Below, one piece after another: positions 933 to 62,916 of a stretch of DNA of 64,000 nucleotides. How positions within the stretch are numbered: the stretch's first letter is position 1; each line of letters begins with the position of its first letter. The notes under the pieces are model-generated. The model was not told the DNA's origin and made no database searches. It was given only the letters and a program-made list of their open reading frames with translations. This DNA is from a virus (taxonomy: Duplodnaviria; Heunggongvirae; Uroviricota; Caudoviricetes), in the IMG/VR virus record IMGVR_UViG_3300033074_000580, positions 223,270-287,269 of that record, one strand, 5' to 3'. Position numbers and translations under genes: made by a program.

Positions 933-935
933 TTT

Positions 936-14998: not shown

Positions 14999-15014
14999 AT
15001 TTTATAAATATTTT

Positions 15015-16157: not shown

Positions 16158-16163
16158 ATATAA

Positions 16164-16192
16164 AATATACCAAAATTAACCGATAATTACAA
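16164..16192 (-). promoter_or_regulatory. Sigma70-like promoter TTGTAA-N17-TATATT upstream of the 380-aa gene
   Basis: 17-bp spacer, 6 nt before the ATG; the -35 box overlaps the end of the upstream gene. Confidence 0.4.
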
Positions 16193-19100
16193 CCCTTCCT
16201 GTTCTCGATGTTGTAAAAGTTATATCAACAACATTCACCGATGTTGTTACAATTGATGATGGCCAGAACATATTATCACTACTATCATAAACGAATACCG
16301 CAACATCTTTACTACCTAAATTATGTGTAACTGATACTGACGATACGTTACTGAAAGTTGTTGAATATTTTGTGGATAATTTTTTCCAACTTGTCCATGT
16401 TCCACTATTTTTACCTCTTACCCAAACTTGACCTGAACGATAATCACCGTAAAATTGATGTTGCCAACTTGAATTATATGCTTGGCCATACAACGCACCG
16501 TCTGATGCATTTCCAGATGGATTACCTGATGAACCATCAATATTTGTTACATAACCAACTACGTTAGCATCTACACTATTGGCATTCAATCCGTTATTTG
16601 AATTTGTATTAACAAAATCAACTCCATCGATTTGATTTGCACTTGTTGCTGTTGATGCATTACCCGATAAAGCACCTGAGAAGGTTGGGGCGGTGATAGT
16701 ACCTGTTGAGGTTATATCTCCGTTATCCATGTCCATAATAACCCTATTAGTACCTCCACCAACAAATCTAAATTCATTACCTGTTCCGTACCATCTTAGT
16801 CCCCATGCATTTGCTGCAGTTGCGTGTGATGGATAATAATCTTCAGAAATACCCCATAAATCAACGTCTAAATCACCTGTTGCTGCGGAAATGAAACCTC
16901 CTGATAAAATAGGTCTATTAGCAATTTCACTAGGGAATGTTTTTTGTCCCGTTATTGTTTCATCACCTGCCTTTGCAACATATAATGCCGCTGATGGTGA
17001 CGTACCTGAACTACCACTAGAACCTGAAGAACCTGACGTTCCACTTGTACCTGAAGTACCATTTATCCCTGATGTTCCTGAGCTACCAGAAGAACCTGAT
17101 GAACCACTTGTTCCTGAACTTCCACTAGACCCTGATGTACCAGATGAACCGCTAGAACCTGAAGTTCCACTTGTTCCTGAAGAACCACTAGACCCCGAAC
17201 TACCTGATGTACCACTAGAACCTGAAGTTCCGCTTGTACCAGACGTACCACTAGAACCTGAACTACCACTTGTTCCACTACTTCCCGAACTACCAGATGT
17301 ACCTGAACTACCATTACTTCCAGAACTACCAGATGTACCCGCAGTTCCACTACTTCCTGAAGAGCCACTAGTTCCCGATGTTCCTGATGAACCTGAACTA
17401 CCTGACGTACCACTGGTTCCTGAAGAGCCCGAGCTACCTGAAGTTCCACTTGTTCCTGAAGAACCTGAACTACCTGATGTACCACTTGTACCGGAACTTC
17501 CACTACTTCCTGAACTACCGGATGTACCAGATGAACCCGAACTACCTGACGTACCACTGGTTCCTGAAGAGCCGGAACTACCTGAAGTACCACTTGTACC
17601 GGAAGTTCCGCTTGTACCCGAAGTTCCACTAGTACCTGATGTTGCTGCCGTATATGAACTACCGTTAATATATAATGAACCCGTTACTGATAAACTACCC
17701 GACACACCAATTGCACCACCACTTTCTGAAATTATCGAATCTCCAATGTGATCACCACCAATTGATTTTGGAATTTTACCGCTGGTTAATGTTTGTTCTT
17801 CACCTAATGAACCCGTATTTCTCGGACCCATTATTAACATCGCACCGTTATAGTTAGAACCACTAGCATTTTGATAAACCCATCTATTATTTAAACTATC
17901 CCACGATAAAGACGCTGTTGCAGTTGAACTACCGCTATCGTATACTTTAATACCTCCAAATCTTTCAGATGGTTCATTTACGTTTACTGATATGTAAGAT
18001 GTTAAAACATTTAATTGTGATGATGTTACATATGTTATTGATGATGAACCCAATACAGTTAAGTCTTGAGTTACCCATAATGAACCTGTTATATATTGAT
18101 TTCCTACTAATTTTAAATTGTTACCATCAAATGTTAAATTTGATTCGACAGTTACATTTGGTGAACTTCCATCTAAAGTAAGAAGTCCGTTATCTTGTGT
18201 TCCTGTCATGGTTACGGTACCTGAAGAACCGCTTGACCCGGATGTTCCTGAAGTTCCAGATGTTCCGCTAGACCCTGAGCTACCACTTGTTCCCGATGAA
18301 CCACTAGAACCTGACGTTCCCGAAGAACCACTAGAACCCGACGTTCCACTTGTTCCAGAAGTTCCACTAGAACCTGAGGTACCACTACTACCAGATGAAC
18401 CACTGGTTCCTGAAGTTCCACTAGAACCGGATGAACCTGACGTTCCACTTGTTCCACTACTTCCTGAACTACCTGATGTGCCACTTGTACCCGAAGAACC
18501 GGATGTACCACTAGACCCTGAACTACCTGATGTTCCTGAAGTACCTGAAGAACCATCACTTCCTGAAGTGCCGCTAGTACCTGCGGTTCCGCTAGACCCT
18601 GAGCTTCCACTCGTACCTGATGTACCTGAACTACCGCTAGAACCTGAAGTACCAGATGTACCTGAACTACCACTAGAACCCGAAGAACCACTTGTTCCTG
18701 AAGAACCGCTTGACCCCGAAGTTCCAGATGTTCCGCTTGTACCTGAAGAACCGCTAGACCCTGATGTACCTGAACTACCACTAGAACCCGATGTGCCCGA
18801 TGAACCCGAACTACCGCTCGTACCTGAAGTTCCACTAGAACCAGATGAACCTGATGTTCCACTACTTCCTGAACTACCAGATGTTCCTGACGTACCACTT
18901 GTTCCGGATGTTGCGGCGTTATATGATGTACCGTTAATAACAACGTCACCCGTCACATAAATTGAACCGGTAACAAACGTATCATCGTTTATCCTTAATC
19001 CAACACCATCATAAATTTGTGCGTTGGTATTTCCGTCTGAAATCTTATTTAATTGTAATCCTGTTACACCACTTGCAGGTATGTTATATAAACCATTACC

Positions 19101-19325
19101 ATCACCTCTAAAACTACCGGTAAATGAACCGGTGTTATATGATGATGTAAAATCGTTAAACGATGTGGTTAATGTGTAGTTAGCAGCATGTGATGCGGAT
19201 ATTGCATTTGATGTCGTACCACTAATTACGGCATTTATAATACCGTCAACCGTTAAATCTCCCGCAATGTGACTATCTCCTGCAACTTCGAGTGAACCCG
19301 ATATTATGGCGTCAAAAATATTCAT
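16176..19325 (-). CDS. Tail-fibre-like protein (1049 aa) with two Gly-(Ser/Thr)-Ser repeat blocks and a pyocin-knob-like C-terminal region
   Basis: (SG[TS])n blocks, QFYGDYRSGQVWVRGKNSGTWTSWKKL knob-type motif and a terminal THNLG module. Confidence 0.75.
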   Translation of the reverse strand: MNIFDAIISGSLEVAGDSHIAGDLTVDGIINAVISGTTSNAISASHAANYTLTTSFNDFTSSYNTGSFTGSFRGDGNGLYNIPASGVTGLQLNKISDGNTNAQIYDGVGLRINDDTFVTGSIYVTGDVVINGTSYNAATSGTSGTSGTSGSSGSSGTSGSSGSSGTSGTSGSSGSSGTSGSSGSSGTSGSSGSSGTSGTSGTSGSSGSSGTSGSSGSSGSSGTSGTSGSSGSSGTSGTSGSSGSSGTAGTSGTSGSDGSSGTSGTSGSSGSSGTSGSSGTSGTSGSSGSSGTSGTSGSSGSSGTSGTSGSSGSSGTSGSSGTSGTSGTSGSSGSSGTSGSSGSSGTSGSSGSSGTSGTSGTSGSSGSSGTVTMTGTQDNGLLTLDGSSPNVTVESNLTFDGNNLKLVGNQYITGSLWVTQDLTVLGSSSITYVTSSQLNVLTSYISVNVNEPSERFGGIKVYDSGSSTATASLSWDSLNNRWVYQNASGSNYNGAMLIMGPRNTGSLGEEQTLTSGKIPKSIGGDHIGDSIISESGGAIGVSGSLSVTGSLYINGSSYTAATSGTSGTSGTSGTSGTSGTSGSSGSSGTSGTSGSSGSSGTSGSSGSSGSSGTSGTSGSSGSSGTSGTSGSSGSSGTSGTSGSSGSSGTSGTSGSSGSSGTAGTSGSSGSNGSSGTSGSSGSSGTSGSSGSSGTSGTSGTSGSSGTSGSSGSSGSSGTSGTSGSSGSSGTSGSSGSSGTSGSSGSSGSSGTSGINGTSGTSGTSGSSGSSGSSGTSPSAALYVAKAGDETITGQKTFPSEIANRPILSGGFISAATGDLDVDLWGISEDYYPSHATAANAWGLRWYGTGNEFRFVGGGTNRVIMDMDNGDITSTGTITAPTFSGALSGNASTATSANQIDGVDFVNTNSNNGLNANSVDANVVGYVTNIDGSSGNPSGNASDGALYGQAYNSSWQHQFYGDYRSGQVWVRGKNSGTWTSWKKLSTKYSTTFSNVSSVSVTHNLGSKDVAVFVYDSSDNMFWPSSIVTTSVNVVDITFTTSRTGRVVIIG
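16998..17639 (-). repeat. Gly-X-Y (G-S/T-S) coding repeat block, about 71 triplets
   Basis: Gly at every third residue, read from the translation. Confidence 0.95.
18216..18908 (-). repeat. Gly-X-Y (G-S/T-S) coding repeat block, about 77 triplets
   Basis: Gly at every third residue; rare Ala/Asp substitutions only at the Y position. Confidence 0.95.
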
Positions 19326-19346
19326 CTAATATAATGTTATACTTAG

Positions 19347-19354
19347 ATAAATAC
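19347..19354 (-). promoter_or_regulatory. GTATTTAT motif upstream of the fibre gene (candidate late promoter)
   Basis: The same 8-mer recurs at 33380, 57643 and 62953, each about 18-37 nt upstream of an ATG on the coding strand. Confidence 0.55.
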
Positions 19355-19381
19355 TTGATTATTTGTATCTAAAACGGAAAA

Positions 19382-21499
19382 TTAGAACAATAACTTATCA
19401 ATCTCTTTTATTACGTCTTGTGAGGTGATATTTTTAGAACATTCAAACTGTCTATCTGTGTTTTTATGTACTGGACACCAATTCCAATCACTCATATCAA
19501 AATCGTAATTATTCCAACAACTATTACAAACATCTTTATTTATTATTCGACTAATACCCTCGAATGGTTCGGTATATACGTCGGTAAAACCAGATATTAA
19601 AATTGTTGGGGTTCCACATGCCCAAGATACCCAACTTAGTCCACTACTAACACCTATAAAAAGTTCCGATTCTTGTAAAATTTTAATAATATCATCCAAT
19701 GGACCTTCGGGTTGTTTGGTGACACCTATTGGAGTTTTATTCCCCATAAAACCATCCTCTTCTTTGGATAATAATCTAACCTCATACCCTTTATCTAACA
19801 AATAATTGGTAATGTCTTGCCATCCGTTTGGATTATTCCAATACTTACATTGTGCTGTTGAATGTATTCCAATACAAACCCTTTTTTTAACATCCTTACC
19901 TAATTTTTTAAGTTTAGGTCTAACTTCAACATAGTCTAAACCTAAAATATCGGAAGCCATTTTAGTTAATGGTTCTTTCTTAGGGTCGGTTGGGTGAGAT
20001 GTAAAATCTATTCCGTTTCTATTTTCTTTATAGAACATTCCCAACCTATACATTCCATATAAGTTATTCACACTAGTACCTGGTTCAACAAATTGTATTT
20101 TAGGATATTGATTTTGGAATAGTTTATTATGGAAAGTGGAACAAACAACCTCACAGTTATGTTTCTTTCTAAATTCCTCAACATATCCCATATATGCGAT
20201 GTTGTCTCCCAATGATTTTGTTTCAAATGAAATAAGAAATTTTTGTTTCTTTGGGTTGAACTTGTATTCTAATTTATAATCATTATCAAGACCTTTTACT
20301 TTAATAATCCACTCAACATAATATTTTATTGAACATTTTGCCCAATGATTACTCTTCATATTTAACTCATATTCAACCTTATCATTTTTTGGGTTAATAA
20401 ACTCAACGTGATAATTTGAATTGGTGTCGTTCAAAATTTCAATAAATGGACCATCAATAAAATTTAAATTAACTTTGGTGTTCTTTTGGTCTTTGTATAC
20501 TGTTTTTTTCTCGACTTTATTTAATCTTTTTATTTCTTCGTTTAACGTTTCGGAAAATACTTTTACTCCTTGATATAAAACCTCAACAACTCCACCTTCT
20601 ATGTATTTCCCCACACTTTCTAAATGATATTGACCCTTTTGAATATTAAAAAATCTACCAACATTGTTATAACGTATTTCAACTAAATAATCTTTATCCG
20701 CTGGTTTACCATCAAAACCTGATATGAAATGAATGTAGGTATCATCACCATCAAAACCAAGATATGTTTGAAATCTTGCACCATTTCTTAAAATTCCGTT
20801 TCTATTCCATGCAGCAAATAAATTCAATTCCTCATTGTTTGGGATGTATTTGCTCACAAATACGTTATTGGTTATTTTTTTAATTGATTGGAACAATTGT
20901 TTTTCTAATTGCCAAGAATCGGGTTTGTTCTTAAAATATTCTTCTTTTGAATTGATTAAATTCACCATTTCAATTGCAACATCCGTCTTAATTGAGAAAA
21001 TGTATGCAGCACAATATGGATTTTCTTGATTTGTGGAACCTCTGTCGTATTCATATATTACAGCATCGTGATGTCTTATATACTCAAGAAACGATTGTCG
21101 ATACTGTGTTGTGTTTGGTAAATTATCATATTCTAAGAAATGAATATATTTTTTACCTAACTGTTTAACTAAATTAAAAGCGTTCTTTATGGTTAACCAA
21201 ATGGCATAATCATGATGAAATTTATTTCTGTTTACAATTTTATAATCATTAGTATCCGTCCACCTATCACTTTGAATTTCATATAATTCAAAATCTTTTT
21301 CCAACAAAATATCGTTATTACCATCGTAGATATAGTAATCAACCATTTTTTGTACATTTGGATTAACAGGATAGTGACCACACAAAATTATTGGACAATT
21401 AAATTCCTTTAAACTTACTATTAGTTCTTTTAAAGTATTTTCTTTTTCAATTGTGTCTAACCAACAATCGATGACAAATACATCTTCGTTAAATTCCAT
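19382..21499 (-). CDS. Aah/TibC-like (autotransporter O-heptosyltransferase family) protein O-glycosyltransferase with an extra N-terminal GT-A-like domain
   Basis: IKYYVEWIIKV beta-domain motif, SLGDNIAYMGYVEEFRKKHNCEVVC, FIGVSSGLSWVSW...ISGFT and the four-Cys iron site VCNSCWN...WCPVHK...QFECSK. Confidence 0.85.
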   Translation of the reverse strand: MEFNEDVFVIDCWLDTIEKENTLKELIVSLKEFNCPIILCGHYPVNPNVQKMVDYYIYDGNNDILLEKDFELYEIQSDRWTDTNDYKIVNRNKFHHDYAIWLTIKNAFNLVKQLGKKYIHFLEYDNLPNTTQYRQSFLEYIRHHDAVIYEYDRGSTNQENPYCAAYIFSIKTDVAIEMVNLINSKEEYFKNKPDSWQLEKQLFQSIKKITNNVFVSKYIPNNEELNLFAAWNRNGILRNGARFQTYLGFDGDDTYIHFISGFDGKPADKDYLVEIRYNNVGRFFNIQKGQYHLESVGKYIEGGVVEVLYQGVKVFSETLNEEIKRLNKVEKKTVYKDQKNTKVNLNFIDGPFIEILNDTNSNYHVEFINPKNDKVEYELNMKSNHWAKCSIKYYVEWIIKVKGLDNDYKLEYKFNPKKQKFLISFETKSLGDNIAYMGYVEEFRKKHNCEVVCSTFHNKLFQNQYPKIQFVEPGTSVNNLYGMYRLGMFYKENRNGIDFTSHPTDPKKEPLTKMASDILGLDYVEVRPKLKKLGKDVKKRVCIGIHSTAQCKYWNNPNGWQDITNYLLDKGYEVRLLSKEEDGFMGNKTPIGVTKQPEGPLDDIIKILQESELFIGVSSGLSWVSWACGTPTILISGFTDVYTEPFEGISRIINKDVCNSCWNNYDFDMSDWNWCPVHKNTDRQFECSKNITSQDVIKEIDKLLF

Positions 21500-22155
21500 T
21501 ATCTTTTTGTTATTATTATAATTCCATTAAGGAAGTTTATAGATTCAATATCAATTCTACACATTGAAACATTATGTGAATTCTCGATTAACCAATCTTC
21601 TCTTCTTGCATGTACGTTTGGTTTATTATAATTCATTAAGCCTCTAAAGTTAACATCGTCAACAAGAGACTTAAAGTTTTCAATACTTGTATCAGGTTTT
21701 AAATAACCTCCTTCATATTCAGGCCAATATGCGGTACCGCAATCCTCCACAACATATATTCCACCAGATTTCACATGGTCAAATAAACATTCAAATGAAA
21801 AATTAACATGTGAATTCATATGCGAACCATCATCGATAATTAAATCAAATGGACCATACATTTTTGAAATGTTTGATAGGAAATTCGCATCGTATTGTGA
21901 ACCTATTTCAACCCTTATGTTTTCTTCTTCGTATTGTTTACAATCGGGGTTAATATCAATACCTAAAATCTTCGAACGATAGAAATAATCTTTCCACGTT
22001 TTTAATGATTTTCCATTTAAAACCCCAATTTCTAATATGTTTAATTCATCATATCTATTAAATGGTAGATATTTTTCATATTTAACACAATAGTTGTGTA
22101 TTTCAGAACTCTTATCTGTTCCGTGTTGTTTTGCAATTCTGTCTAAATTACTCAT
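21499..22155 (-). CDS. Class I SAM methyltransferase (sugar O-methyltransferase-like)
   Basis: LEIGVLNGKSL, GSQYD, FDLIIDDGSH and GGIYVVED. Confidence 0.85.
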   Translation of the reverse strand: MSNLDRIAKQHGTDKSSEIHNYCVKYEKYLPFNRYDELNILEIGVLNGKSLKTWKDYFYRSKILGIDINPDCKQYEEENIRVEIGSQYDANFLSNISKMYGPFDLIIDDGSHMNSHVNFSFECLFDHVKSGGIYVVEDCGTAYWPEYEGGYLKPDTSIENFKSLVDDVNFRGLMNYNKPNVHARREDWLIENSHNVSMCRIDIESINFLNGIIIITKR

Positions 22156-24872
22156 CTTGTAAAGTATATCATTTGTAGATTATCATTCCCACCCATAAAC
22201 ATTAGGTAAGAATTAAATCCGAGTTTATTCATCCTATCAATTAAATCCTGTCTTAAAATTTCATCATAATTAAAATGACTATGGTGATATTCCATAGAGA
22301 TGGTTTTAACTTTCATTAAATTCTCGTTACTAATTCCATTCAATGCATGAATCTCCGCACCTTCAATATCAACTTTAAGAAAATCAATTTTATCAACTAA
22401 TCCAGTCTCAAAAAGATAATTTAACGTATATGTTTGAACTTTATATTTTTTAGCACCTTCTTGTGTATAAAATAAATTAGAACCTCCCAAATGTGTGCTT
22501 TCATGTAATGTCATCTCACCCATTTCGTTTGATGCCGCCGCGTTAAACAAAACAGAACGTGGGTCAGCATTTAATGAAAGTAATTTGAAATAACGTCTAT
22601 CAGGTTCAAAGGATATAACTCTACTTGCACCTTGACTATATGCCCATCTATTAAAGACTCCAATGTTACCCCCCAAATCAACAACCACATCACCTTCGTT
22701 TATTGTTCTTTCTCTATTTTTATAATAATCTCTTAAATTGTAGATTTCATGAAATATGGCTGGAGCCCACCCAAATTTTTCCGCCACTTCCATTGTCGAA
22801 CCCTCATATTCAGTTAATGATTCAAAGTTATCTAATTTATAAACGCCAGTATAAAAACATTTTGATTTATAAAATGAATTATCTCTTTTCATTTTAATAA
22901 ATTCAATCATCTTATCTGATATGTCCGCGTTTTTGTTACCGTGAAAATATATTATGTTTGATTTATCCTGAGGAATAGATTGGTATCCAAATATTCTATC
23001 AAAATTTTGTGGACCATCTTCATTCCAAAACTTATAGAAATGGTGTAGGGTTTCATTTGTGTTACCTAAATCTCCATCATAACCAGACGTGTCGAAATTT
23101 GAAAGTGGTAAATGATTTGTATAATCAAGAGTCCATCTCAATCCGTTATCAATACCTTCATCATTCCATAAAAAATATTTTCCATATTCTTCAGGATTTT
23201 CTTTCATCAAAGTTCTATATTCAGTTAATATCTGATAAAAAAATGATTTTGAACCATCATTGTAAATGTAGAAACAGATGTGCATGTATGGTTGTTTTTT
23301 ATCAACCTTCCATTTTTTTGCCAACTCTTCATTAAATAATTGTGACTTGTCGTCATCATAGATTCCAAAAAATTCTTCTTGGACATGTATATCGGATAAC
23401 GGATATCTTCCTACTTGATTAAAATATTTTTTTACATCATCGATGTTATAATTTACAACAACATCCCCATCAATCCATATGTAATAATCAAATCCTTCAT
23501 TTAGAGATTCAATACATGCATATTGTTTCCAATACCATTTATCGTGTTCTGAAATTTTTGGTGGTGTTATTTTTCTTTTGATTACATTTGGATAATCAAA
23601 TGGTACATCGCAATCAACTCCGTAAACAATTATCTTTTGATTTGAAAACTCTAATAACGATTGTACTAACTTTTCAATCACCGGCATGTAACCAATGTTT
23701 CCCGTTGTAACAAATGCAAATGATTTAATTCTTGATTCTAATATTTTAGATGCATTTTGTGCAATTGTATCCCAATTAAAATTTTTATGTATTTCTTTTG
23801 ACTCTTCTCTCGACTTTATTAAAATTGCAGTATAGTAATTGTAGGACTCCATCATTTTAGATGCTAAGTCTTGGAAATTTGGTTCACAATATTCACCAAC
23901 AACATCTCTATCCCCAATATTTGCTTGTCTCATATGGGATATTGATACCGCAATACCTTTATTTTGTGCAAATTGTAATTGACCACCATATTCGGAATAA
24001 ATTGATGGTGTTCCACAAGCCATGGCCTCAATTAAAGGCAAATTCCAACCCTCACTTCTGGCACATGACACAAACACATCACCTTCTTGTAGATATTTCA
24101 CATATTCTTCCCTACTTGGAAATTCAATATATTTGACGTTTTTATAAAGTAGTTTGTGTTTATTTACTCTTTCTTCTGTTGAGTTCATTCCGTCTGATGC
24201 ATATGGATTTTCAACAGAGGCTATCAACTCAACATCGTCATAATCTTTGAATGTTTCACCAAATGTTCGTATAATTTCCGTTGTTGATTTTCTATAATCC
24301 CATCTACCAAATAATAAAAATCTAAATTTATCTTTCTTTGGGAATTTTTCAATTGGTTTAAATGTTTCAACATCAACACCTTCAGGAACAATACTTATTT
24401 TTTCTTTAGGATATCCTTGTTCAATTAAAGAATCATATTGCCATTGAGTAGGTACCCACACTTCATCGAAATAATGTAATCTTTGGAAGAATTTATCGGG
24501 ATAACGAGTTGATTCCCATACGTTATATGCTATCTTATAACCCTCGTAATTTTCGTAGAAATATTCATTGTCCATTTCAACCAACACAATATGAATATCA
24601 GGTACATAATTACCGTCATAATTGTATAATGGAAAATCGGTGGTTGTATTATCGGTGTTAATCAACGTTTGTTGATATAACATGTTTTTCATTTCTTCGG
24701 TAATGTATGGTTCGTCGTCATGAGCATTTAGTCTATACCCTTTCCATCCACTACCAATTGTTAAATTTCTAACTTTTACCGTATGGTATTTGTTCAATGC
24801 AGTAAAAAAAGACCTTGCATGGTTAGCATATCCCGTGGTCCCAATAAATGATGTGTGTGCAAGTATTTTCAT
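22152..24872 (-). CDS. Three-domain fusion: GT4 glycosyltransferase + GT-A-like domain + FkbM methyltransferase
   Basis: N-terminal GTTGYA...EGWNLPLIEAMACG; central YYIWIDGD; C-terminal VVDLGGNIG...FLKVDIEGAE. Confidence 0.85.
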   Translation of the reverse strand: MKILAHTSFIGTTGYANHARSFFTALNKYHTVKVRNLTIGSGWKGYRLNAHDDEPYITEEMKNMLYQQTLINTDNTTTDFPLYNYDGNYVPDIHIVLVEMDNEYFYENYEGYKIAYNVWESTRYPDKFFQRLHYFDEVWVPTQWQYDSLIEQGYPKEKISIVPEGVDVETFKPIEKFPKKDKFRFLLFGRWDYRKSTTEIIRTFGETFKDYDDVELIASVENPYASDGMNSTEERVNKHKLLYKNVKYIEFPSREEYVKYLQEGDVFVSCARSEGWNLPLIEAMACGTPSIYSEYGGQLQFAQNKGIAVSISHMRQANIGDRDVVGEYCEPNFQDLASKMMESYNYYTAILIKSREESKEIHKNFNWDTIAQNASKILESRIKSFAFVTTGNIGYMPVIEKLVQSLLEFSNQKIIVYGVDCDVPFDYPNVIKRKITPPKISEHDKWYWKQYACIESLNEGFDYYIWIDGDVVVNYNIDDVKKYFNQVGRYPLSDIHVQEEFFGIYDDDKSQLFNEELAKKWKVDKKQPYMHICFYIYNDGSKSFFYQILTEYRTLMKENPEEYGKYFLWNDEGIDNGLRWTLDYTNHLPLSNFDTSGYDGDLGNTNETLHHFYKFWNEDGPQNFDRIFGYQSIPQDKSNIIYFHGNKNADISDKMIEFIKMKRDNSFYKSKCFYTGVYKLDNFESLTEYEGSTMEVAEKFGWAPAIFHEIYNLRDYYKNRERTINEGDVVVDLGGNIGVFNRWAYSQGASRVISFEPDRRYFKLLSLNADPRSVLFNAAASNEMGEMTLHESTHLGGSNLFYTQEGAKKYKVQTYTLNYLFETGLVDKIDFLKVDIEGAEIHALNGISNENLMKVKTISMEYHHSHFNYDEILRQDLIDRMNKLGFNSYLMFMGGNDNLQMIYFTR

Positions 24873-24879
24873 TATGTAA

Positions 24880-24908
24880 AATATATGAAAAATACTTCAA
24901 ATTAACAA
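24880..24908 (-). promoter_or_regulatory. Sigma70-like promoter TTGTTA-N17-TATATT upstream of the 906-aa gene
   Basis: 17-bp spacer, 7 nt before the ATG. Confidence 0.45.
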
Positions 24909-25952: not shown

Positions 25953-26434
25953 ATAATGTTCTTATTTACCAATCTAAACCAAGTTATTAAACTATATCTT
26001 TCACCCTCAATAACAGGTAAAACCCTATGTAATATTTTCTTATCCATCATGACAGATAAGTTTGGTTGTGGTTTTAATATTTTAATTTCATTATTTATGA
26101 CATATTCAAATTCTCCACCAATATAATCATCATTTATATAAGTAACGATGGTTAAATCACTCTCATCTCTATGATATGAATCATTTTGGTTTGTTTTTTC
26201 GGTAATTTTATTTATAAAAATTCCATTATGTTGAATGTGGTAATCTATTCCAACAACGTCTAACATCTTCATTTTAAATTCATCTAAATTAGTATCGTCA
26301 TATAGATGCATACTATTATAAAACCAATTTAAACCATCAGGGATTGTTTTGTTGTTTTTAACAAATGATTTACATTTAGTTAAAATGTATTCCATTTCAT
26401 TATCATCCAATAAATTAGAAAATGTTTTTATCAT
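25949..26434 (-). CDS. 2OG-Fe(II) oxygenase (prolyl-4-hydroxylase-like)
   Basis: YHRD, YINDDYIGGEF and HRVLPVIEGERYSLITW. Confidence 0.85.
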   Translation of the reverse strand: MIKTFSNLLDDNEMEYILTKCKSFVKNNKTIPDGLNWFYNSMHLYDDTNLDEFKMKMLDVVGIDYHIQHNGIFINKITEKTNQNDSYHRDESDLTIVTYINDDYIGGEFEYVINNEIKILKPQPNLSVMMDKKILHRVLPVIEGERYSLITWFRLVNKNII

Positions 26435-33379: not shown

Positions 33380-33387
33380 ATAAATAC
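33380..33387 (-). promoter_or_regulatory. GTATTTAT motif (candidate late promoter) upstream of the ATP-grasp/Hint gene
   Basis: AAGTATTTATAG, identical over 12 nt to the copy at about 57643. Confidence 0.55.
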
Positions 33388-33416
33388 TTATTATCCCATT
33401 TAAATTTAACATTATA

Positions 33417-53410: not shown

Positions 53411-56400
53411 TTACTCTAATTCGTCTAATCTGAATTTAAATTTCTTTCCGTTTCTATTATTGATAATATAAAGATTTTCTTCACCTTCTTGTATAGTCCA
53501 GTTGCCGGATGTTCCATCAATGTCATTTCCTTCAGGTTTATTCATGTTACTTAAGTGTAAGTCATTGGTATAAACGTTAGCCCAACCCATTGATGCGGAG
53601 CCTAAGTTATATGAGTTATTTGAATGTGGTAAAATGTTTCCTCTGAATACCGATGCATTACCTTCCGCCCCTAACCAAACATATGGTGTTCCATTTGCCG
53701 CAACATACATACCCCATCCACTTGCGTTTGTCATGTTAACTGCCGTTGTTGAACCGTTTGTATTAGTATAACCAACACCGTACATATTATTCAATGATGA
53801 TGCGGTTGGAACATATGAACCCCCAATTGTATAAATCGCACCTGTTGATGTTCCTGTTTCGGAACTAGAATAGTTTCCGTTTAAATATGCCGTTGCCGCA
53901 GATGTACGATATATCGGACCTGCTAATGTTAAACTAGAAAATGTTGGACTATTTGACGTTCCTAAATTTTGGTTAATATTATATGTATTTGCAAATGACG
54001 TACCACTTGAACCAGATGTACCAGAAGAACCAGATGTTCCATTAGAACCTGGAGACCCATTAGCTCCTGAAGTACCTGATGAACCTGAACTTCCTGATGT
54101 TCCACTACTTCCTGATGTTCCATTTGAACCAGGTGAACCATTTATCCCCGAAGTACCACTAGTCCCTGAAGAACCTGAACTACCCGAGGAACCAGATGTG
54201 CCACTAGTACCTGATGTACCCGAAGTACCACTTGTTCCTGATGAACCATTAGAACCTGAAGTTCCACTACTTCCACTAGAACCGGACGTTCCACTTGTTC
54301 CCGAAGAACCATTAGAGCCGGATGTTCCACTACTTCCAGACGAACCTGAACTACCTGATGTACCGCTCGTACCTGAACTTCCAGACGAACCTGAAGTTCC
54401 CGAACTTCCACTACTTCCTGAAGTACCACTAGTACCTGAACTACCGCTAGTACCTGAAGAACCTGAACTTCCACTCGTACCTGAACTACCCGATGAACCC
54501 GAGGTTCCACTTGTTCCTGAAGAACCCGCATTACCTGTTCTATTAAACTCAATCACTAATTGTGCTCCGTTAGTTGGTAATGTTCCCGATATATAAGAAA
54601 CAGGTATTTTATAATATCCTGTTGCCACAGTAACCGCACCATTTACTTGAAATTGGTTTACTATTGTGCCTGTGTCTCTACTAACAATTGTAATTATACC
54701 TCTTGATGAAGTTGTTGTTGAATCATCCCAAGTGTCGTACCATGTGGTTCTTGTGCCACCTAATTGGTCAGCGTTATCTATAAAAATTGTTGTTACGGAG
54801 GCAATTGTTACGTTATTATATGCAATTAAACCCGCACCTGGGTCCGCATCAGTTGTGGTTGTTGAGAAGTTATATCTAACTCCTCCCGCAACTCCTGAAC
54901 TACCGGACGAACCACTTGTTCCTGATGAACCGGATGTACCAGAAGAACCCGAAGAACCACTTGTTCCTGAAGAACCAGATGAACCGGATGTACCAGATGT
55001 TCCACTTGTTCCTGAAGAACCAGATGAACCGGATGTACCAGAAGAACCTGAGGAACCTGAGGAACCACTAGTTCCTGAAGAACCTGAGGAACCACTAGTT
55101 CCTGAAGAACCTGAACTTCCACTTGTACCTGATGTACCACTAGTTCCTGATGTTCCTCTTGTACCAGAAGAACCACTTGAACCAGACGTTCCACTCGTAC
55201 CTGAACTACCCGATGAACCCGAGGTTCCACTTGTTCCTGATGTGCCACTTGTTCCTGATGAACCTGCGGTTAATAAATTTGTACCAACCCCTGTAGCTAA
55301 TGTTGAAATGTCCCAATATCCTCCTCTGTTTGTTCCTCCTTGTTCAAATAATCTAACTTTATTTTGAAAAACGTCAAAACTTATCCCACCAACTAATGTC
55401 GTGTTTGTTTGTGCCTTAACCAAATTTAATTGACCACCTTCATCACCGCTTGAGAATGTTGATGTTATTTCACCTGTTACTTTTAACGTGCCCGTAACTT
55501 CTGTATTTGAATTTATTGAAACTAAAGTACCCGTATCTGTGATATTTGAATCGGCGATATGATGTGTACCCGAACCTTTTTGTATTTTATTGTTTGCAGG
55601 ATATGTTGGTGAACCTTTTGTTGAATATTCAGGTCCAAATATGGTAACTGCATAATCAACAGTTGATGAACTATATTCATACGCCCAATCATTTGTTAAA
55701 CTATCAAAATAGAAAGATGAGGTAGTATTTGAACCGGAGTCAAAAACGTTTAATCCACCATATCTAACTGCAGGTGATGATGCATTTACTGATATGAAAT
55801 TATTTTGAACATTTAATTGTGATGCAGTTGCATATGTAATTGAAGAGGAACCTATTACCAATAAGTTATCAGTAATTGTTAATGAACCCGTTATATGTGT
55901 ATTAGAATTAACTCTAAATAAACTTCCGTCGTATGTTAAATTTGATTCTACTGTAACATTAGGTGATGAACCATTTAATGTCAACAAACCATTATCTTGG
56001 GTTCCGGTCATTGTTACGGTACCCGAACTTCCACTACTACCTGACGAACCAGACGTTCCACTAGTTCCTGAAGTACCTCTTGTTCCTGATGAACCAGATG
56101 AACCACTAGTTCCTGAAGAACCGGATGAACCACTAGTTCCAGACGTTCCACTGGTTCCTGATGAACCAGATGAACCACTAGTTCCTGAAGAACCGGATGA
56201 ACCCGACGTACCTGAAGAACCACTAGTTCCTGATGAACCTGAACTTCCACTTGTACCGGAACTTCCACTACTACCTGACGAACCAGACGTTCCACTTGTT
56301 CCTGATGAACCACTAAAACCTGATGTTCCACTTGTTCCGGAAGAACCTCCACTTCCACTTGTACCAGATGAACCTGAAGAACCTGATGTTCCACTTGTTC

Positions 56401-57625
56401 CTGATGAACCGTTTGATCCTGAAGTCCCACTAGTTCCTGAACTACCAGATGAACCACTAGAACCCGAGGTTCCACTACTACCTGAAGAACCGCTTGTTCC
56501 TGAAGAACCGCTTGTTCCTGAAGAACCTGAAGTTCCACTAGTTCCTGATGAACCGGATGTTCCAGAAGTACCCGAACTACCCGATGAACCTGATGTTCCA
56601 CTACTTCCATTAGAACCTGAAGTACCACTAGACCCTGAAGAACCAGAAGTTCCACTCGTACCTGATGTACCACTTGAACCTGAACTACCAGATGTTCCGC
56701 TAGACCCTGATGAACCGGAAGACCCCGATGTACCGGAAGTACCACTTGAACCACTTGAACCTGATGAACCACTAGAACCTGATGTGCCAGAACTACCAGA
56801 TGTACCGCTCGTACCTGAACTTCCAGATGAACCTGAAGTACCACTTGTTCCTGAACTACCAGACGAACCACTAGTTCCTGAAGTGCCGCTTGAACCATTA
56901 CTTCCTGACGAACCTGAAGTTCCGCTAGTCCCTGATGAACCAGATGAACCACTTGTACCAGAACTGCCAGATGTACCACTAGTTCCTGAAGAACCTGATG
57001 TTCCACTTGTTCCTGAGGTTGCCGCGTTATATGATGTTCCGTTAATTACAACATCACCCTGAACTTTTACAGAACCTGTAACAATTTGGTCGGCTGTAAA
57101 TGTATTTGATTGTGCTTTTTGAGCGTAATATGTTTGATTTGTTTGTAATGTATTGATGTCGTTCGATTGTTGAGCTTGTGATGCGGTAATCGAACTATTA
57201 AATGAATCTTGGGATGATGTGAATGAATAAAATTCTGTTGAATTTAATTTACCTGTTCCAACAAGTTCGTTGTTTAAATAGATTGAACCTGATATTTGTA
57301 CTGAACCCGTAAATTGATGTACGTCCGCCAAGGTGTCACCAAATGCACTTGAACCACTAGCATAACTTGTGGTCATGAATGTAACCGATGAACTTACAAT
57401 ATAACTTTCCGCAATTATTGAACCTGTAACAGTTAAATTACCTTTAATTGTGGTATCCGTATTAACTTCAAAACCGTTACCTTGTGATATTGAGGCAGTA
57501 ACACTACCATCTGCTATTTGTGAAAGATTTAATCCCGTTACACCCGTTGCTGGTATATTTGATAAACCACTTGCATCACCAACAAATGAACCCGAAATTA
57601 ACTCTAACGAACCGTATATCTCCAT
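53411..57625 (-). CDS. Tail-fibre-like protein (1404 aa) with three Gly-(Ser/Thr)-Ser repeat blocks
   Basis: (SG[TS])n blocks separated by globular modules; C-terminal NVYTNDLHLSN...WTIQEGEENLYIINNRNGKKFKF motif typical of phage fibre termini. Confidence 0.75.
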   Translation of the reverse strand: MEIYGSLELISGSFVGDASGLSNIPATGVTGLNLSQIADGSVTASISQGNGFEVNTDTTIKGNLTVTGSIIAESYIVSSSVTFMTTSYASGSSAFGDTLADVHQFTGSVQISGSIYLNNELVGTGKLNSTEFYSFTSSQDSFNSSITASQAQQSNDINTLQTNQTYYAQKAQSNTFTADQIVTGSVKVQGDVVINGTSYNAATSGTSGTSGSSGTSGTSGSSGTSGSSGSSGTSGTSGSSGSNGSSGTSGTSGSSGSSGTSGTSGSSGSSGTSGTSGSSGTSGSSGSSGSSGSSGTSGTSGSSGSSGSSGTSGSSGSSGTSGTSGTSGSSGSSGTSGSNGSSGTSGSSGSSGTSGTSGSSGTSGTSGSSGTSGSSGTSGSSGSSGTSGSSGSSGSSGTSGTSGSNGSSGTSGTSGSSGSSGTSGSGGSSGTSGTSGFSGSSGTSGTSGSSGSSGSSGTSGSSGSSGTSGSSGTSGSSGSSGTSGSSGSSGTSGTSGTSGSSGSSGTSGSSGSSGTRGTSGTSGTSGSSGSSGSSGTVTMTGTQDNGLLTLNGSSPNVTVESNLTYDGSLFRVNSNTHITGSLTITDNLLVIGSSSITYATASQLNVQNNFISVNASSPAVRYGGLNVFDSGSNTTSSFYFDSLTNDWAYEYSSSTVDYAVTIFGPEYSTKGSPTYPANNKIQKGSGTHHIADSNITDTGTLVSINSNTEVTGTLKVTGEITSTFSSGDEGGQLNLVKAQTNTTLVGGISFDVFQNKVRLFEQGGTNRGGYWDISTLATGVGTNLLTAGSSGTSGTSGTSGTSGSSGSSGTSGTSGSSGSSGTRGTSGTSGTSGTSGSSGSSGTSGSSGSSGTSGSSGSSGSSGTSGSSGSSGTSGTSGTSGSSGSSGTSGSSGSSGTSGSSGTSGSSGSSGVAGGVRYNFSTTTTDADPGAGLIAYNNVTIASVTTIFIDNADQLGGTRTTWYDTWDDSTTTSSRGIITIVSRDTGTIVNQFQVNGAVTVATGYYKIPVSYISGTLPTNGAQLVIEFNRTGNAGSSGTSGTSGSSGSSGTSGSSGSSGTSGSSGTSGTSGSSGSSGTSGSSGSSGTSGTSGSSGSSGSSGTSGSNGSSGTSGTSGSSGSSGTSGSNGSSGTSGTSGTSGTSGTSGSSGSSGSSGTSGTSGINGSPGSNGTSGSSGTSGSSGSSGTSGANGSPGSNGTSGSSGTSGSSGTSFANTYNINQNLGTSNSPTFSSLTLAGPIYRTSAATAYLNGNYSSSETGTSTGAIYTIGGSYVPTASSLNNMYGVGYTNTNGSTTAVNMTNASGWGMYVAANGTPYVWLGAEGNASVFRGNILPHSNNSYNLGSASMGWANVYTNDLHLSNMNKPEGNDIDGTSGNWTIQEGEENLYIINNRNGKKFKFRLDELE
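53996..54535 (-). repeat. Gly-X-Y coding repeat block, about 60 triplets (includes GIN, GSP, GSN, GAN variants)
   Basis: Gly register preserved throughout. Confidence 0.95.
54893..55267 (-). repeat. Gly-X-Y coding repeat block, about 41 triplets
   Basis: Gly register preserved. Confidence 0.95.
56018..57016 (-). repeat. Gly-X-Y coding repeat block, about 111 triplets (longest in the window)
   Basis: Gly register preserved; variants GSN, GSG, GFS and GTR. Confidence 0.95.
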
Positions 57626-59544: not shown

Positions 59545-62500
59545 TTAAAGTTTTTTTGGTGGAGCTGTTAATGGGTCAACTTCCTGTAACATGAATTTAA
59601 ACACCTTATTTGTTTTATTATTATATAAGAATAAATCTTCTTCTCCTTCAACTATTGTGTAATCACCAATACCATTTGACATTGATAAGTCAGAAGTATA
59701 AACTGTACTCCAACGATTTGATGCACCACCTAAATCTTGGGAACCGTTTGTTCCGGGTATTAAATTACCCGCTCCCGTTATTTCAACGTCAGTCGAACCT
59801 CCTCTTTGAAATAATAATCTCGCAGTTGAATATGCTCTATTTATGTAGGCTATTTCACTACCAGCAATATCATAGGTAATAGCTAAATGACTACTTGTAC
59901 TTGGTCTACCGAATTTAGTTGTTGTTACAAATGTTGAATCATATGTATGTTTCATACCCATATGATATGTGTCATTATGGTCAACTAAAAATTGTCCGTT
60001 AACGGTTGTTGCATATGCTTGTAATGTACCGGCTTGGGTTGTATTACCCGAACCATCAACTTTCCATTGTATTGAACCTCCTCTAGCACCAATTACAAAG
60101 TGTCTAACCTCGGCAGAACCACTATCGGTTAGTCTACCTCTTTCAATGAAAATACCATTCGCAGTATCTGCCGAAGTATTATTTTGATTTACATATATTG
60201 AGGTTCTATTGTATGTACCTGTATTTGAGGTTCCTGTAAATTCAAATGGTGTTGTTGAACTCATCGTTAACGATGCGGAAGTTGAATTTCCTCTACTAGT
60301 TACGGTTTGTAATGTATCCGTTTCCGATGTGACAGCATATGAACCAATATTACCTGAATGTATGACAGGATATTCCGTTCCAGAACTATTAACCCATTTT
60401 AAAGTTCTACCTCTAAATTGATAATCTCCTGTATCGGTTGGCTCTCCCCAAAACACTTTTTTACCACTTTCATAATTATAAACCCCTGAATTGGTTGAAT
60501 CTGCACTAATATGTGGAATTCTCCAATAACCACTACTAACCGATACTTTGTAAGGTGGTGTGGTTATACCTGTATAATCACCGCCAGCATTACCATACAC
60601 CGATGTAAATAATAAAGTTCCTGTCATTGTATCACCAGCTTTCGCTACATACGCAGCCGCTGAAGGTGACGTACCTGAAGAACCGCTAGAACCAGATGTT
60701 CCACTAGAACCCGAATTTCCTGAAGAACCACTAGTACCTGAAGAACCTGAATTACCACTACTTCCTGAAGTACCACTACTTCCAGAAGAACCGGAAGTTC
60801 CAGATGAACCACTAGAACCTGAAGTACCAGATGAACCACTAGAACCCGAAGTACCACTTGTTCCTGAAGAACCACTAGACCCCGAAGTTCCTGAAGTACC
60901 ACCAGTACCTGAACTACCGCTAGTACCTGAAGAACCTGAACTTCCACTCGTACCTGAACTACCACTAGTTCCTGATGTACCACTAGTTCCCGATGTTGCT
61001 GCAGAATAAGACGTACCGTTAATTACAATATCTGAAGTTATTCTTAACGTACCTGTAATATTGGTATCAGAATCAATAGTTACTAATGTACCAGTATCGG
61101 TGATATTACTATCAAGTAAATGATGGTGACCGTGTGCTTTAGTTATTTTATTTTCAGTTAGATATGTTGGGGTTCCTTTTGTGTTAAATTCAGGACCAAA
61201 TAAAGCCACCGCATAATCCACCGTGGATGAACTATATTCATATGCCCAATCGTTTGTTAAACTATCAAAATAAAATGATGCAGTCGTGTTCGACCCAGAG
61301 TCAAAAACGTTTAATCCACCATATCTAACGGCGGGAGATGACGCATTAACGGATATAAAATTGTTCTGTACATTCAAATAAGACGCCGTCGAATAAACAA
61401 TTGAAGATGTACCAAGAACCATTAAATTGTCTGTTATTATTAACGAACCCGTTATTTCTGTATTTGAATTAACTTTAAATGTTGTACCATCGTATGTTAA
61501 GTTATCTTCAACTGTCACATTAGGAGAAGAACCATTTAAAGTTAAAAGACCATTATTTTGTACACCTGTCATTGTTACGGTACCACTACTTCCAGAGGAA
61601 CCGGATGTTCCGCTTGTTCCTGACGTACCTGCAGTACCAGAAGAACCTGAGGTTCCTGATGAACCACTTGAACCGGATGTACCGCTAGTACCTGAAGAAC
61701 CTGATGAACCACTTGTTCCCGAAGATCCACTTGAACCGGACGTACCTGATGTACCACTAGTTCCTGATGAACCCGATGTGCCGCTAGTTCCTGATGAACC
61801 TGAACTACCTGACGTTCCACTACTTCCTGAATTACCAGATGTTCCTGACGTACCACTAGTTCCTGACGTACCAGAAGTTCCAGATGAACCACTAGAACCT
61901 GAAGTACCACTAGTTCCAGATGAACCGTCACTACCAGACGTTCCACTGGTTCCTGAAGAACCGGATATTCCACTAGTCCCTGAAGACCCTGAACTACCCG
62001 AAGTTCCACTTGTTCCGGACGAACCTGAAGTACCACTAGTACCTGAAGTACCTGATGTTGCGGCAGAATATGATGTTCCGTTGATTATTAAATCGCCAGT
62101 TAATCTAACTGAACCAGTAACATCTAAATCATCGCCAACAATAACTTTAGTTCCACCTGAACTTCTAATTTTATTACCATCTTGTAATTGTAATGTTCCT
62201 CTTACATCAATTAAACCGGTTGTTGGGTCTAACAATAGATTACCCCCACCTGATGATTTTAATTGAATGTCGCCGTCAGCGGATTGTAAAGTAATGGTAT
62301 CAGTACCATCTTCTAAAATTTTAAAAGATTGACCATTATCTGTTGTAATTTGTAATTCTTGTGTTGTACTACCAAGAACTTTTGTACCATCAATATATAG
62401 TGATGCTGATGATAAATATAAATCTCTAAATTGATACGTTGGTGTTCCTAAATCAAAAACATTATTGTGAGTAGGAATAAGTGACCCACTAATATATTGG

Positions 62501-62916
62501 TCTCCTTTAAACGTATTAGAACCAGTTGTTGCAAAGGTACTCGAAATTGAATTAAATGATGACGTAAACGAATTAAAATTTGTAGTTAAATTAGTAATTG
62601 ACGAATTTTGATTACCGTCTAATATTACTTGAGATTGGGTATATGAATTAAATGTTGTTTCATCTAATTTACCAGTACCAATTGCACTACCATTCAATGT
62701 AATTGAACCCGTAATGTTTACACTACCTGTGAATTGATGGGTATCATCTGAGGAGTTACCAAAGATTGATGAACCTGATTCATATAGTATTGATGCAGTA
62801 GTAATTGACGCATGAAATTCGTCAACCGTTAGGGTTCCTCTTACACGTAAATCTTGTTCGATTTCCGCAGAGCCGGACACTTTAAGTCCGTTCTTAATTA
62901 TAAATTCGTTTGCCAT
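59545..62916 (-). CDS. Tail-fibre-like protein (1123 aa) with two Gly-(Ser/Thr)-Ser repeat blocks
   Basis: (SG[TS])n blocks; modules shared with the other two fibres; C-terminal RWSTVYTSDL...YTIVEGEEDLFLYNNKTNKVFKF. Confidence 0.75.
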   Translation of the reverse strand: MANEFIIKNGLKVSGSAEIEQDLRVRGTLTVDEFHASITTASILYESGSSIFGNSSDDTHQFTGSVNITGSITLNGSAIGTGKLDETTFNSYTQSQVILDGNQNSSITNLTTNFNSFTSSFNSISSTFATTGSNTFKGDQYISGSLIPTHNNVFDLGTPTYQFRDLYLSSASLYIDGTKVLGSTTQELQITTDNGQSFKILEDGTDTITLQSADGDIQLKSSGGGNLLLDPTTGLIDVRGTLQLQDGNKIRSSGGTKVIVGDDLDVTGSVRLTGDLIINGTSYSAATSGTSGTSGTSGSSGTSGTSGSSGSSGTSGISGSSGTSGTSGSDGSSGTSGTSGSSGSSGTSGTSGTSGTSGTSGNSGSSGTSGSSGSSGTSGTSGSSGTSGTSGTSGSSGSSGTSGSSGSSGTSGTSGSSGSSGTSGSSGTAGTSGTSGTSGSSGSSGTVTMTGVQNNGLLTLNGSSPNVTVEDNLTYDGTTFKVNSNTEITGSLIITDNLMVLGTSSIVYSTASYLNVQNNFISVNASSPAVRYGGLNVFDSGSNTTASFYFDSLTNDWAYEYSSSTVDYAVALFGPEFNTKGTPTYLTENKITKAHGHHHLLDSNITDTGTLVTIDSDTNITGTLRITSDIVINGTSYSAATSGTSGTSGTSGSSGTSGSSGSSGTSGSSGTGGTSGTSGSSGSSGTSGTSGSSGSSGTSGSSGSSGTSGSSGSSGTSGSSGNSGSSGTSGSSGNSGSSGTSGSSGSSGTSPSAAAYVAKAGDTMTGTLLFTSVYGNAGGDYTGITTPPYKVSVSSGYWRIPHISADSTNSGVYNYESGKKVFWGEPTDTGDYQFRGRTLKWVNSSGTEYPVIHSGNIGSYAVTSETDTLQTVTSRGNSTSASLTMSSTTPFEFTGTSNTGTYNRTSIYVNQNNTSADTANGIFIERGRLTDSGSAEVRHFVIGARGGSIQWKVDGSGNTTQAGTLQAYATTVNGQFLVDHNDTYHMGMKHTYDSTFVTTTKFGRPSTSSHLAITYDIAGSEIAYINRAYSTARLLFQRGGSTDVEITGAGNLIPGTNGSQDLGGASNRWSTVYTSDLSMSNGIGDYTIVEGEEDLFLYNNKTNKVFKFMLQEVDPLTAPPKKL
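60667..60993 (-). repeat. Gly-X-Y coding repeat block, about 36 triplets
   Basis: Gly register preserved. Confidence 0.95.
61579..62055 (-). repeat. Gly-X-Y coding repeat block, about 53 triplets
   Basis: Gly register preserved. Confidence 0.95.

Follow-up and report, generated by a model that had tools for sequence, protein, structure and literature searches.

The question raised by this locus is what a relative of the protein O-heptosyltransferases TibC and Aah does in a tailed phage, where its gene lies directly ahead of a gene for a repetitive, fibre-like protein. The stretch of DNA analysed (hereafter the window) is 64,000 nucleotides long and corresponds to positions 223270-287269 of IMG/VR virus record IMGVR_UViG_3300033074_000580, which comprises 323,865 bp and has a completeness of 97% according to CheckV. 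The gene in question, P0001 (19382..21499, minus strand), encodes a two-enzyme protein of 705 amino acids that combines a GT-A-fold domain, a beta-sandwich and a TibC/Aah-type (bacterial autotransporter heptosyltransferase, BAHT) domain. To our knowledge BAHT enzymes have so far been described solely in pathogens, where they modify autotransporter adhesins and are associated with virulence, and no autotransporter beta-domain was found in the phage genome. The answer favoured here, which the sequence comparisons make probable, is that P0001 would form the final module of an assembly line, encoded by the phage, for O-glycosylation of its own collagen-like fibres.

The C-terminal part of the protein (residues 342-705; 19385..20476, minus strand) consists of a beta-barrel, a GT-B core, a thumb and a four-cysteine iron finger. 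A comparison with hidden Markov models, proposed in an original prediction that had been made from the sequence alone, gave 292.4 bits (E 4.7e-87) for TIGR04414 (hepto_Aah_TibC, NCBIfam) against a curated cut-off of 200 bits, with residues 342-702 aligned to positions 11-373 of the 374 in the profile, whereas models for lipopolysaccharide (LPS) heptosyltransferases reached merely 11-24 bits. A search of the sequences of solved structures recovered TibC (PDB 4rap/4rb4) with an E value of 5e-54 over residues 361-703, and WaaC with one of 0.12. An AlphaFold2 model of residues 342-705, built from a 54-sequence alignment (A3), had a mean predicted local distance difference test (pLDDT) score of 94 and, beginning at the beta-barrel, was superposed on TibC over 354 residues with a Z score of 40.6, a root-mean-square deviation of 2.2 A and 34% identity. 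It had been allowed that the structure might align better with LPS or small-molecule enzymes of family GT9; the opposite was found, the Z score of 40.6 for TibC standing against 19-21 for LPS-type GT9 enzymes (3tov 20.8, WaaC 19.6, WaaF 19.1). Judged by both sequence and predicted fold, residues 342-705 are a genuine TibC/Aah homologue. No PHROGs family was found for P0001. At least 590 proteins have either the same two-domain architecture (~705-711 amino acids) or a methyltransferase-extended one (~895-911 amino acids), and where such proteins carry a JGI name it is 'autotransporter strand-loop-strand O-heptosyltransferase'.

In TibC, Asp-110 is the catalytic base, Thr-226 and Lys-230 bind the beta-phosphate and Trp-305 lies at the heptose O4, while Cys-339, Cys-342, Cys-358 and Cys-370 hold iron and Phe-265, Val-266 and Phe-368 make the thumb contact (PMC4358343). 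These residues were mapped to P0001 via a phmmer alignment in which the posterior was at its top level in the relevant blocks. The catalytic base and the three binding residues are present as D432, T548, K552 and W623, and are kept in at least 231 of 241 homologues (at least 48% identity). The iron ligands correspond to C658, C661, C675 and C687; the first two are kept in 240 of the 241 and all four are invariant in alignment A3, which points to retention of the four-cysteine 1Fe-0S iron finger. TibC is a ring dodecamer built through the thumb and back-to-back dimers, and by sequence alignment its contact residues are present in P0001 as F584, M585 and F685. Both the beta-barrel and the iron finger have been implicated in dimer formation, and the iron finger also in substrate recognition (PMC4358343). 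A homodimer prediction for the BAHT domain (2 x 364 amino acids, alignment A3) returned a score of 0.00, which gives no verdict and was used neither way. The motifs by which the family had first been recognised were all located, namely YYVEW at residues 393-397, SLGD at 429-432, CNSCWN at 658-663, WCP at 674-676 and FEC at 685-687, together with HFLEYD of the N-terminal domain at 120-125.

Two further positions bear on the sugar that is transferred. Pro-300 of TibC, a determinant of stereoselectivity that is Ser-294 in AAH, corresponds to S618, and Arg-286, whose hydrogen bond to adenine N1 is the authors' basis for ADP specificity, corresponds to I604 (PMC4358343). Among the 241 homologues the latter position is occupied by Val (96), Leu (77) or Ile (61) and never by Arg. 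In a wider set of homologous open reading frames (ORFs), 73 of 95 bacterial and 54 of 94 viral members retain the arginine within a TibC-like 'QER' motif, so that its loss is a property of the branch and not an artefact of alignment. The earlier statement that the window holds no heptose-pathway gene can be extended to the whole 324-kb genome, in which neither gmhA nor rfaE domain II (adenylyltransferase) was found; nor was gmhA found in nine related viral records, one of them a 335-kb relative that is 100% complete. A sugar nucleotidyltransferase of the NTP_transferase type is likewise absent from the phage genome, and with both kinds of gene lacking the first sugar must come from the host pool. 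The suggestion that the donor may be a different NDP-sugar has thus gained ground, since there is no heptose pathway in the phage and the Arg-286 position is aliphatic throughout the clade. On these sequence features a nucleotide-sugar other than an ADP-sugar appears at least as likely a donor as ADP-heptose, and the chance that the sugar is heptose is put at roughly one in three.

The proposed acceptor is fibre 1 (P0002, 1049 amino acids; 16176..19325, minus strand), which contains two strict Gly-X-Y blocks (residues 141-371 and 564-776) with 148 Gly-(Ser/Thr)-Ser triplets and zero proline. The original prediction had described a Ser/Thr-repeat fibre; the richness in Ser and Thr stands, and the register is that of a strict Gly-X-Y collagen (Pfam Collagen, PF01391, E 2.7e-61). 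Further candidate acceptors are fibre 2 (P0003, 1404 amino acids; 53411..57625, minus strand), with three collagen-like blocks and 214 triplets, and fibre 3 (P0004, 1123 amino acids; 59545..62916, minus strand), with two blocks and 89 triplets, and a whole-genome scan found no Gly-X-Y fibre gene beyond these three. Together they have seven blocks and 451 triplets in which Gly occupies every third residue without interruption, the X position is Ser in 225 and Thr in 215, and the Y position is Ser in 423. The repeats of the three fibres therefore hold ~860 Ser/Thr and only 2 Pro, and proline/hydroxyproline or charged residues at X and Y, which stabilise the collagen helix, are not a feature of them. 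The C-terminal non-repeat parts match virion-structural and tail-fibre PHROGs modestly (fibre 1 E 1e-6, fibre 2 E 6.6e-12), and the label 'fibre', unproven, is a reasonable one on this evidence. The G+C content of the window is ~30% and climbs to ~40% across the repeat-rich fibre genes. Four small 2-oxoglutarate-Fe(II) oxygenase genes are spread over the surrounding island (with positions 25949-26984, 30109-30666 and 11691-12335, all minus strand); beside collagen they recall prolyl and lysyl hydroxylases, yet the repeats hold almost no Pro or Lys.

The genes for enzyme and fibre 1 are on the same strand and, as had been predicted, 56 bp apart, with the stop codon of P0001 ending at 19382 and the start of fibre 1 at 19325. 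This spacer (19326..19381, minus strand) has no terminator-like hairpin and contains the word AAGTATTTAT, of which there are three copies in the window against 0.8 expected. All three are on the minus strand (19347-19356, 57643-57652 and 33380-33389) and each lies ~20-25 nt before a start codon, those of fibre 1, fibre 2 and a 630-amino-acid Hint-domain protein respectively, while GGTATTTAT occupies the equivalent spot before fibre 3. The AAGTATTTAT word may be a late-promoter element. Scans of 14500-26500 for Sigma-70 promoters and terminators gave results at the level of shuffled sequence and were uninformative. Two plus-strand ORFs within the fibre 1 gene (16891-17751 and 18118-18960) were rejected as shadows of the repeat, and megablast of 15000-25000 of the window against the phage collection gave no match. 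Directly downstream of fibre 1 are two paralogous genes (13889-14998 and 15015-16157, minus strand; 369 and 380 amino acids), both of PHROG 1417, which may encode fibre-associated parts or assembly factors.

The pairing of enzyme and fibre genes was surveyed in 80 viral loci with a BAHT-domain relative. In the near clade (54-81% identity, same N-terminal domain) a G(S/T)S collagen-like gene begins 57-68 bp downstream of the enzyme gene (loci L002-L005, L007, L008, L010-L015, L018 and L025); in L016, L017/L022 and L020 such a gene is inside the locus and non-adjacent, and the other near-clade loci end too early to be judged. The pairing is present too at ~50% identity (L023/L024) and in a clade at 40-43% identity, whose proteins of 1013-1018 amino acids have a different 650-amino-acid extension and in which one or two other genes separate the enzyme gene from the fibre gene that follows it. 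As a background, 6% of ORFs of at least 200 amino acids in the surveyed loci reach 24% Ser+Thr. Additional enzyme genes occur in some relatives: in L053-L055 and L060 of the 40-43% clade (~10000-12160) two BAHT-type genes stand in tandem ahead of the fibre gene, the first encoding the 1013-1018-amino-acid protein with the 'QER' Arg and the second a 296-amino-acid BAHT-like ORF with Ala there, and L011, a 335-kb relative of the phage, has a stand-alone 376-amino-acid BAHT gene, with Ile at the Arg-286 position, beside its two-domain gene. A whole-genome scan of the phage studied here found no second BAHT or N-domain gene.

The pairing is not confined to phages. A G-(S/T)-(S/T) collagen-like ORF lies within 6 kb in 17 of the 30 bacterial loci nearest to the phage enzyme, among them a 2.7-Mb Methylococcales contig and a 5.2-Mb Arenicellales chromosome, the bacterial neighbour proteins being 150-330 amino acids long with blocks of 12-39 triplets. 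Within the same distance none was found in 50 more distant 'QER' loci (Victivallales, Selenomonadales, Paraburkholderia). When enzyme domains were clustered at 60% identity, pairing within 3 kb was seen in 12 of 33 clusters, and in no member of a 67-member 'QER' cluster. The pairing persists through changes of protein architecture, of gene order (the collagen-like gene may follow the enzyme gene immediately or after one or two others, or may precede it) and between kingdoms. That an enzyme-substrate layout has been redeployed for a phage fibre, as first suggested from this one locus, is therefore supported as a comparative argument by both phage and bacterial clusters. The closest 'bacterial' match (L083; 57% identity, with a GTT/GTS collagen-like gene adjacent) is on a 238-kb scaffold binned as Pseudobdellovibrionaceae (JBIIER010000003.1), which may be a jumbo-phage contig binned into a metagenome-assembled genome and not a bacterial chromosome. 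The cultured Microcystis phage Mel-JY01 encodes a 1226-amino-acid FkbM-N-domain-BAHT fusion, annotated only as 'methyltransferase FkbM', which adjoins a Ser-rich 'structural protein' without Gly-X-Y blocks; this structural protein has the N-terminal motif 'FGDT..D..H.FTGS' in common with fibres 2 and 3.

Upstream of P0001 are two coding regions that overlap it and each other by 1 and 4 bp. The first encodes a Methyltransf_24 methyltransferase of 218 amino acids (21499..22155, minus strand), whose final base doubles as the first one of the P0001 gene, and the second a 906-amino-acid protein with a GT4 glycosyltransferase and an FkbM methyltransferase (22152..24872, minus strand), with a 4-bp overlap with the methyltransferase gene that follows. 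In P0267, a 1488-amino-acid protein from another metagenome, the modules are joined in the order GT4-FkbM-Methyltransf_24-N-domain-GT9/BAHT, which is that of the three window genes. P0275 and P0251 resemble it, P0257 adds a sulfotransferase, and Methyltransf_24 is fused with GT-A and BAHT domains in P0267, P0274 and P0280. The GT4 part encoded in the window shares 50-57% identity with the N-termini of P0267 and P0275, both of which carry GT-A and BAHT domains in the same chain. Through these fusions the five catalytic modules of the three window genes are tied into one functional unit. The middle of the 906-amino-acid protein was considered as a second copy of the N-domain and rejected, there being no significant BLASTP similarity (best E 0.08).

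The N-terminal half of P0001 (residues 1-341) has no Pfam, NCBIfam or PHROG family match. An exhaustive profile search with the N-domain recovered 407 cluster representatives (E <= 1e-3), some of them stand-alone proteins of ~330-350 amino acids and others part of proteins of up to 1851 amino acids, with fusions to GT4, FkbM, Methyltransf_24, sulfotransferase and BAHT domains. In a 61-sequence alignment of the domain Asp-125, the D of 'EYD', is the sole invariant residue, and L23, N62, A99, S169 and E199 are at least 90% conserved. An AlphaFold2 model of this half (pLDDT 93) has an alpha/beta domain at residues 1-237 (20789..21499, minus strand), in which E123-Y124-D125 come directly after the strand 118-123, followed at residues 240-331 (20507..20782, minus strand) by an all-beta sandwich that, from the secondary structure of the model, joins the two catalytic parts. 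VIA-align placed residues 1-237 in the nucleotide-diphospho-sugar transferase fold (Z 12.5-15.4), with GT-A matches at Z 12.5-15.2 (mannosylglycerate synthase, chlorovirus and Xenopus hyaluronan synthases, ArnC, TarP and glycogenin) and nucleotidyltransferase matches, including IspD and GlmU, at up to Z 15.4. The best Foldseek matches were GT6 alpha-3-GalT and BoGT6a, GT43 GlcAT-P, UGGT and PBCV-1 A64R (2p73), with E ~1e-5 for those to GT6, GT43 and A64R. The GT-A-like character read earlier from HFLEYD is accordingly borne out at the level of the fold, and the domain is likely to be a glycosyltransferase rather than a nucleotidyltransferase.

Put together, these observations suggest the following scheme. 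Late in infection, and in the cytoplasm, the BAHT domain would transfer a first sugar from a host-supplied nucleotide-sugar to hydroxyl groups of Ser and Thr within the Gly-(Ser/Thr)-Ser triplets that the three fibres contain. The fused GT-A domain and the products of the GT4-FkbM and Methyltransf_24 genes would then extend, methylate and cap the glycan, and the resulting dense coat might stabilise and/or shield a collagen-like triple helix that lacks proline. A bolder form of the proposal, which is possible but on the doubtful side, holds that both the acceptor and the donor have been exchanged in a large branch of the TibC/Aah family that occurs in environmental phages and in some bacteria: the ring enzyme would processively load a non-ADP nucleotide-sugar on nearly every Ser/Thr, fused or neighbouring modules of the GT-A, GT4 and methyltransferase types would complete the glycan, and only glycosylated chains would fold, giving a glycan-dependent collagen made wholly by a virus.

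Several considerations count against the assembly-line explanation. The link between enzyme and substrate consists of gene neighbourhood and gene fusions only. Fibre 1 alone is adjacent to P0001, fibres 2 and 3 being located 34-40 kb away, and since fibre 1 appears to have its own upstream promoter-like word its co-transcription with the enzyme is not established. Common descent links many of the supporting loci, so the counts given above are not independent, and 21 of the 33 enzyme clusters have no collagen-like neighbour within 3 kb. The acceptor of TibC is a folded beta-helix, a shape far from that of a Gly-X-Y chain. The argument from Arg-286 is limited by a ligand structure at 3.9 A and by a contact that the authors themselves call weak (PMC4358343). 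The modelled fold of the N-domain suits glycosyltransferases and sugar nucleotidyltransferases alike, and the window as a whole is an extensive island of genes for sugar-related and radical-SAM enzymes, of a type usually read in aquatic phages as host-surface-modifying.

The fold of the N-domain leaves room for a different function, that of a sugar-phosphate nucleotidyltransferase supplying activated donor to the fused BAHT domain. IspD, GlmU and others match at Z ~15, equal to the GT-A enzymes, and the genome is without a canonical NTP_transferase, but this assignment is unlikely: there is no Gly or Arg in the first 30 residues, so that no Gly-rich signature loop is visible there, the invariant Asp closes a beta-strand in the manner of DxD motifs, the leading Foldseek matches are glycosyltransferases (GT6, GT43 and A64R), and the domain is often fused to other glycosyltransferases and to sugar methyltransferases. 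It is improbable that the enzyme and its neighbours instead act on the host, altering its surface or one of its proteins (LPS core, capsule or adhesin), for example to block superinfection, with the fibre gene a mere neighbour. The content of the window, with its many glycosyltransferases, DegT aminotransferase, 4,6-dehydratase/epimerase and carbamoyltransferase, would suit such a role, comparable sets in aquatic phages being commonly read as host-surface modification (PMC7029224), and the nearest non-BAHT relatives of the enzyme are LPS heptosyltransferases. The match to TibC is, however, far above that to the LPS enzymes (E 5e-54 against 0.12; Z 40.6 against ~20), the BAHT-specific beta-barrel and iron finger are both retained, and the pairing with G(S/T)S proteins recurs in unrelated phage architectures and in bacteria.

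A third possibility keeps the virion as target and places the sugar elsewhere than on the collagen-like triplets, on Ser-rich non-collagen parts of the fibres or on another structural protein. The Mel-JY01 neighbour, Ser-rich without Gly-X-Y and sharing its N-terminal motif with fibres 2 and 3, could be taken in this sense, as could the preference of TibC for Ser in beta-strand-loop-strand repeats and not in Gly-X-Y chains (PMC4358343); what the neighbours have in common over 12 clusters, the bacterial proteins of 150-330 amino acids included, is nevertheless a G-(S/T)-(S/T) block, and this makes the possibility quite improbable. Least probable of all is adjacency without function, in which the gene order is a matter of shared descent in a fibre/sugar island that is hypervariable, and the cassette serves to make a glycan that is free or bound to lipid, or to alter a small molecule. 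While the close relationship of many loci, the 21 unpaired clusters and the fibre genes' own upstream words speak for it, the pairing outlasts changes of domain architecture, gene order and kingdom, and the 67-member 'QER' bacterial cluster is never paired, so that the association is branch-specific and not a universal background.

Under the assembly-line explanation other enzymes of the island could supply and tailor later sugars. In addition to those named above, the window encodes GT2-type, TOD1/MUCI70-like and GT7-like transferases and further methyltransferases. A divergent sugar block on the plus strand (234-6590) holds the TOD1/MUCI70-like and GT2-type transferases, a methyltransferase, the DegT aminotransferase and the 4,6-dehydratase/epimerase, and together with a NodU/CmcH-type carbamoyltransferase (34576-36243, minus strand) it is a tool-kit for an amino-deoxy, methylated, carbamoylated sugar. 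Two tandem genes (44735-46147 and 46144-47565, minus strand) combine Glyco_transf_7N/7C with laminin-G/concanavalin-like lectin domains, a combination that is unusual for a phage; Glyco_transf_7N/7C is the family of the animal beta-1,4-galactosyltransferases. Six consecutive radical-SAM genes (36265-43901, minus strand), two of them with an N-terminal SPASM domain, and two more at 10683-11690 and 26984-28027 (minus strand) form a set that is unusually dense beside fibre and sugar genes, and their products could modify sugars or peptides. The 630-amino-acid protein preceded by a copy of AAGTATTTAT (31464-33356, minus strand) matches Hint, intein-splicing and AXH modules over residues ~465-629, and its N-terminal 460 amino acids are without a family.

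The BAHT family and the idea of virus-encoded virion glycosylation are already known; what is new is the acceptor class, the architecture and a probable change of donor. No paper was found in the literature that links BAHT enzymes with phages or with collagen-like proteins, and papers mentioning both collagen-like phage proteins and glycosylation draw no link between the two. BAHT enzymes are now seen in hundreds of phage proteins, paired with a collagen that is nearly free of proline. If the proposal is correct, tailed phages would possess an entire protein O-glycosylation line, encoded in their own genomes, for the fibres by which hosts are recognised; this would bear on host range, on how well virions withstand proteases and grazers and on the way immune systems perceive phages. 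It would explain the stability of the Pro-free Gly-Ser-Ser 'collagens' that are common in metagenomes, would offer a set of soluble, cytoplasmic enzymes with a simple and repetitive acceptor for use in glyco-engineering, and would mean that 'autotransporter strand-loop-strand O-heptosyltransferase', the name now assigned automatically, does not fit this branch. With an aliphatic residue naturally in place of the adenine-reading Arg, donor specificity in the family becomes open to direct test.

Known systems resemble this one to different degrees. Mycobacteriophages use phage-encoded glycosyltransferases to decorate their own virion proteins, the targets being capsid and tail-tube proteins. Virion glycosylation in these phages is mentioned in PMC11256854. 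The mycobacteriophage enzymes are of other families, and there is no BAHT module or collagen-like acceptor. PBCV-1 A064R is a chlorovirus multi-domain enzyme, with glycosyltransferase domains and a methyltransferase, that works in the cytoplasm and builds the glycan of the virus's own structural capsid protein. It is similar to P0001 in being a virus-encoded multi-module enzyme, and PDB 2p73, which is its first domain, is among the Foldseek matches of the P0001 N-domain; however, no sequence relationship is detectable beyond the GT-A fold, A064R is without a BAHT/GT9 module, and it extends N-linked capsid glycans and not Ser/Thr of a collagen-like fibre.

Among collagen-like proteins, BclA of the Bacillus anthracis exosporium is a Gly-X-Thr filament that is densely O-glycosylated with a methylated oligosaccharide capped by an amino-deoxy-sugar (PMC10050317). 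It provides a prokaryotic collagen-like glycoprotein for comparison, and the phage window too encodes a DegT aminotransferase, a dehydratase and methyltransferases, but in BclA the repeats are rich in Pro (GPT) and the glycosyltransferases belong to families other than BAHT, and it is a spore surface protein and not a virion fibre. In the cuticle collagen of Riftia pachyptila galactosylated Thr, rather than hydroxyproline, is credited with thermal stability in work that a passage of PMC10141479 cites. This is a physical precedent for a glycan-stabilised, Pro-poor triple helix, although in an animal extracellular collagen with other enzymes, and the analogy is one of mechanism only. The closest known systems are TibC-TibA and Aah-AIDA-I of E. 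coli (TIGR04414; PDB 4rap/4rb4; PMC4358343), to whose enzymes P0001 is homologous across the whole TibC chain, keeping the beta-barrel, GT-B core, thumb and four-Cys finger together with the catalytic Asp, the Thr/Lys pair and the Trp, and in which the enzyme gene is again directly upstream of a gene for a repeat-rich, Ser-rich protein, there a surface protein. P0001 differs in its setting, a phage without an autotransporter whose neighbouring gene encodes a Gly-X-Y collagen-like fibre and not a beta-helix, in having Ile for the adenine-reading Arg-286 in a phage that encodes no ADP-heptose pathway, and in carrying an extra 340 amino acids of GT-A fold and beta-sandwich within a cassette that adds a GT4 glycosyltransferase and two methyltransferases.

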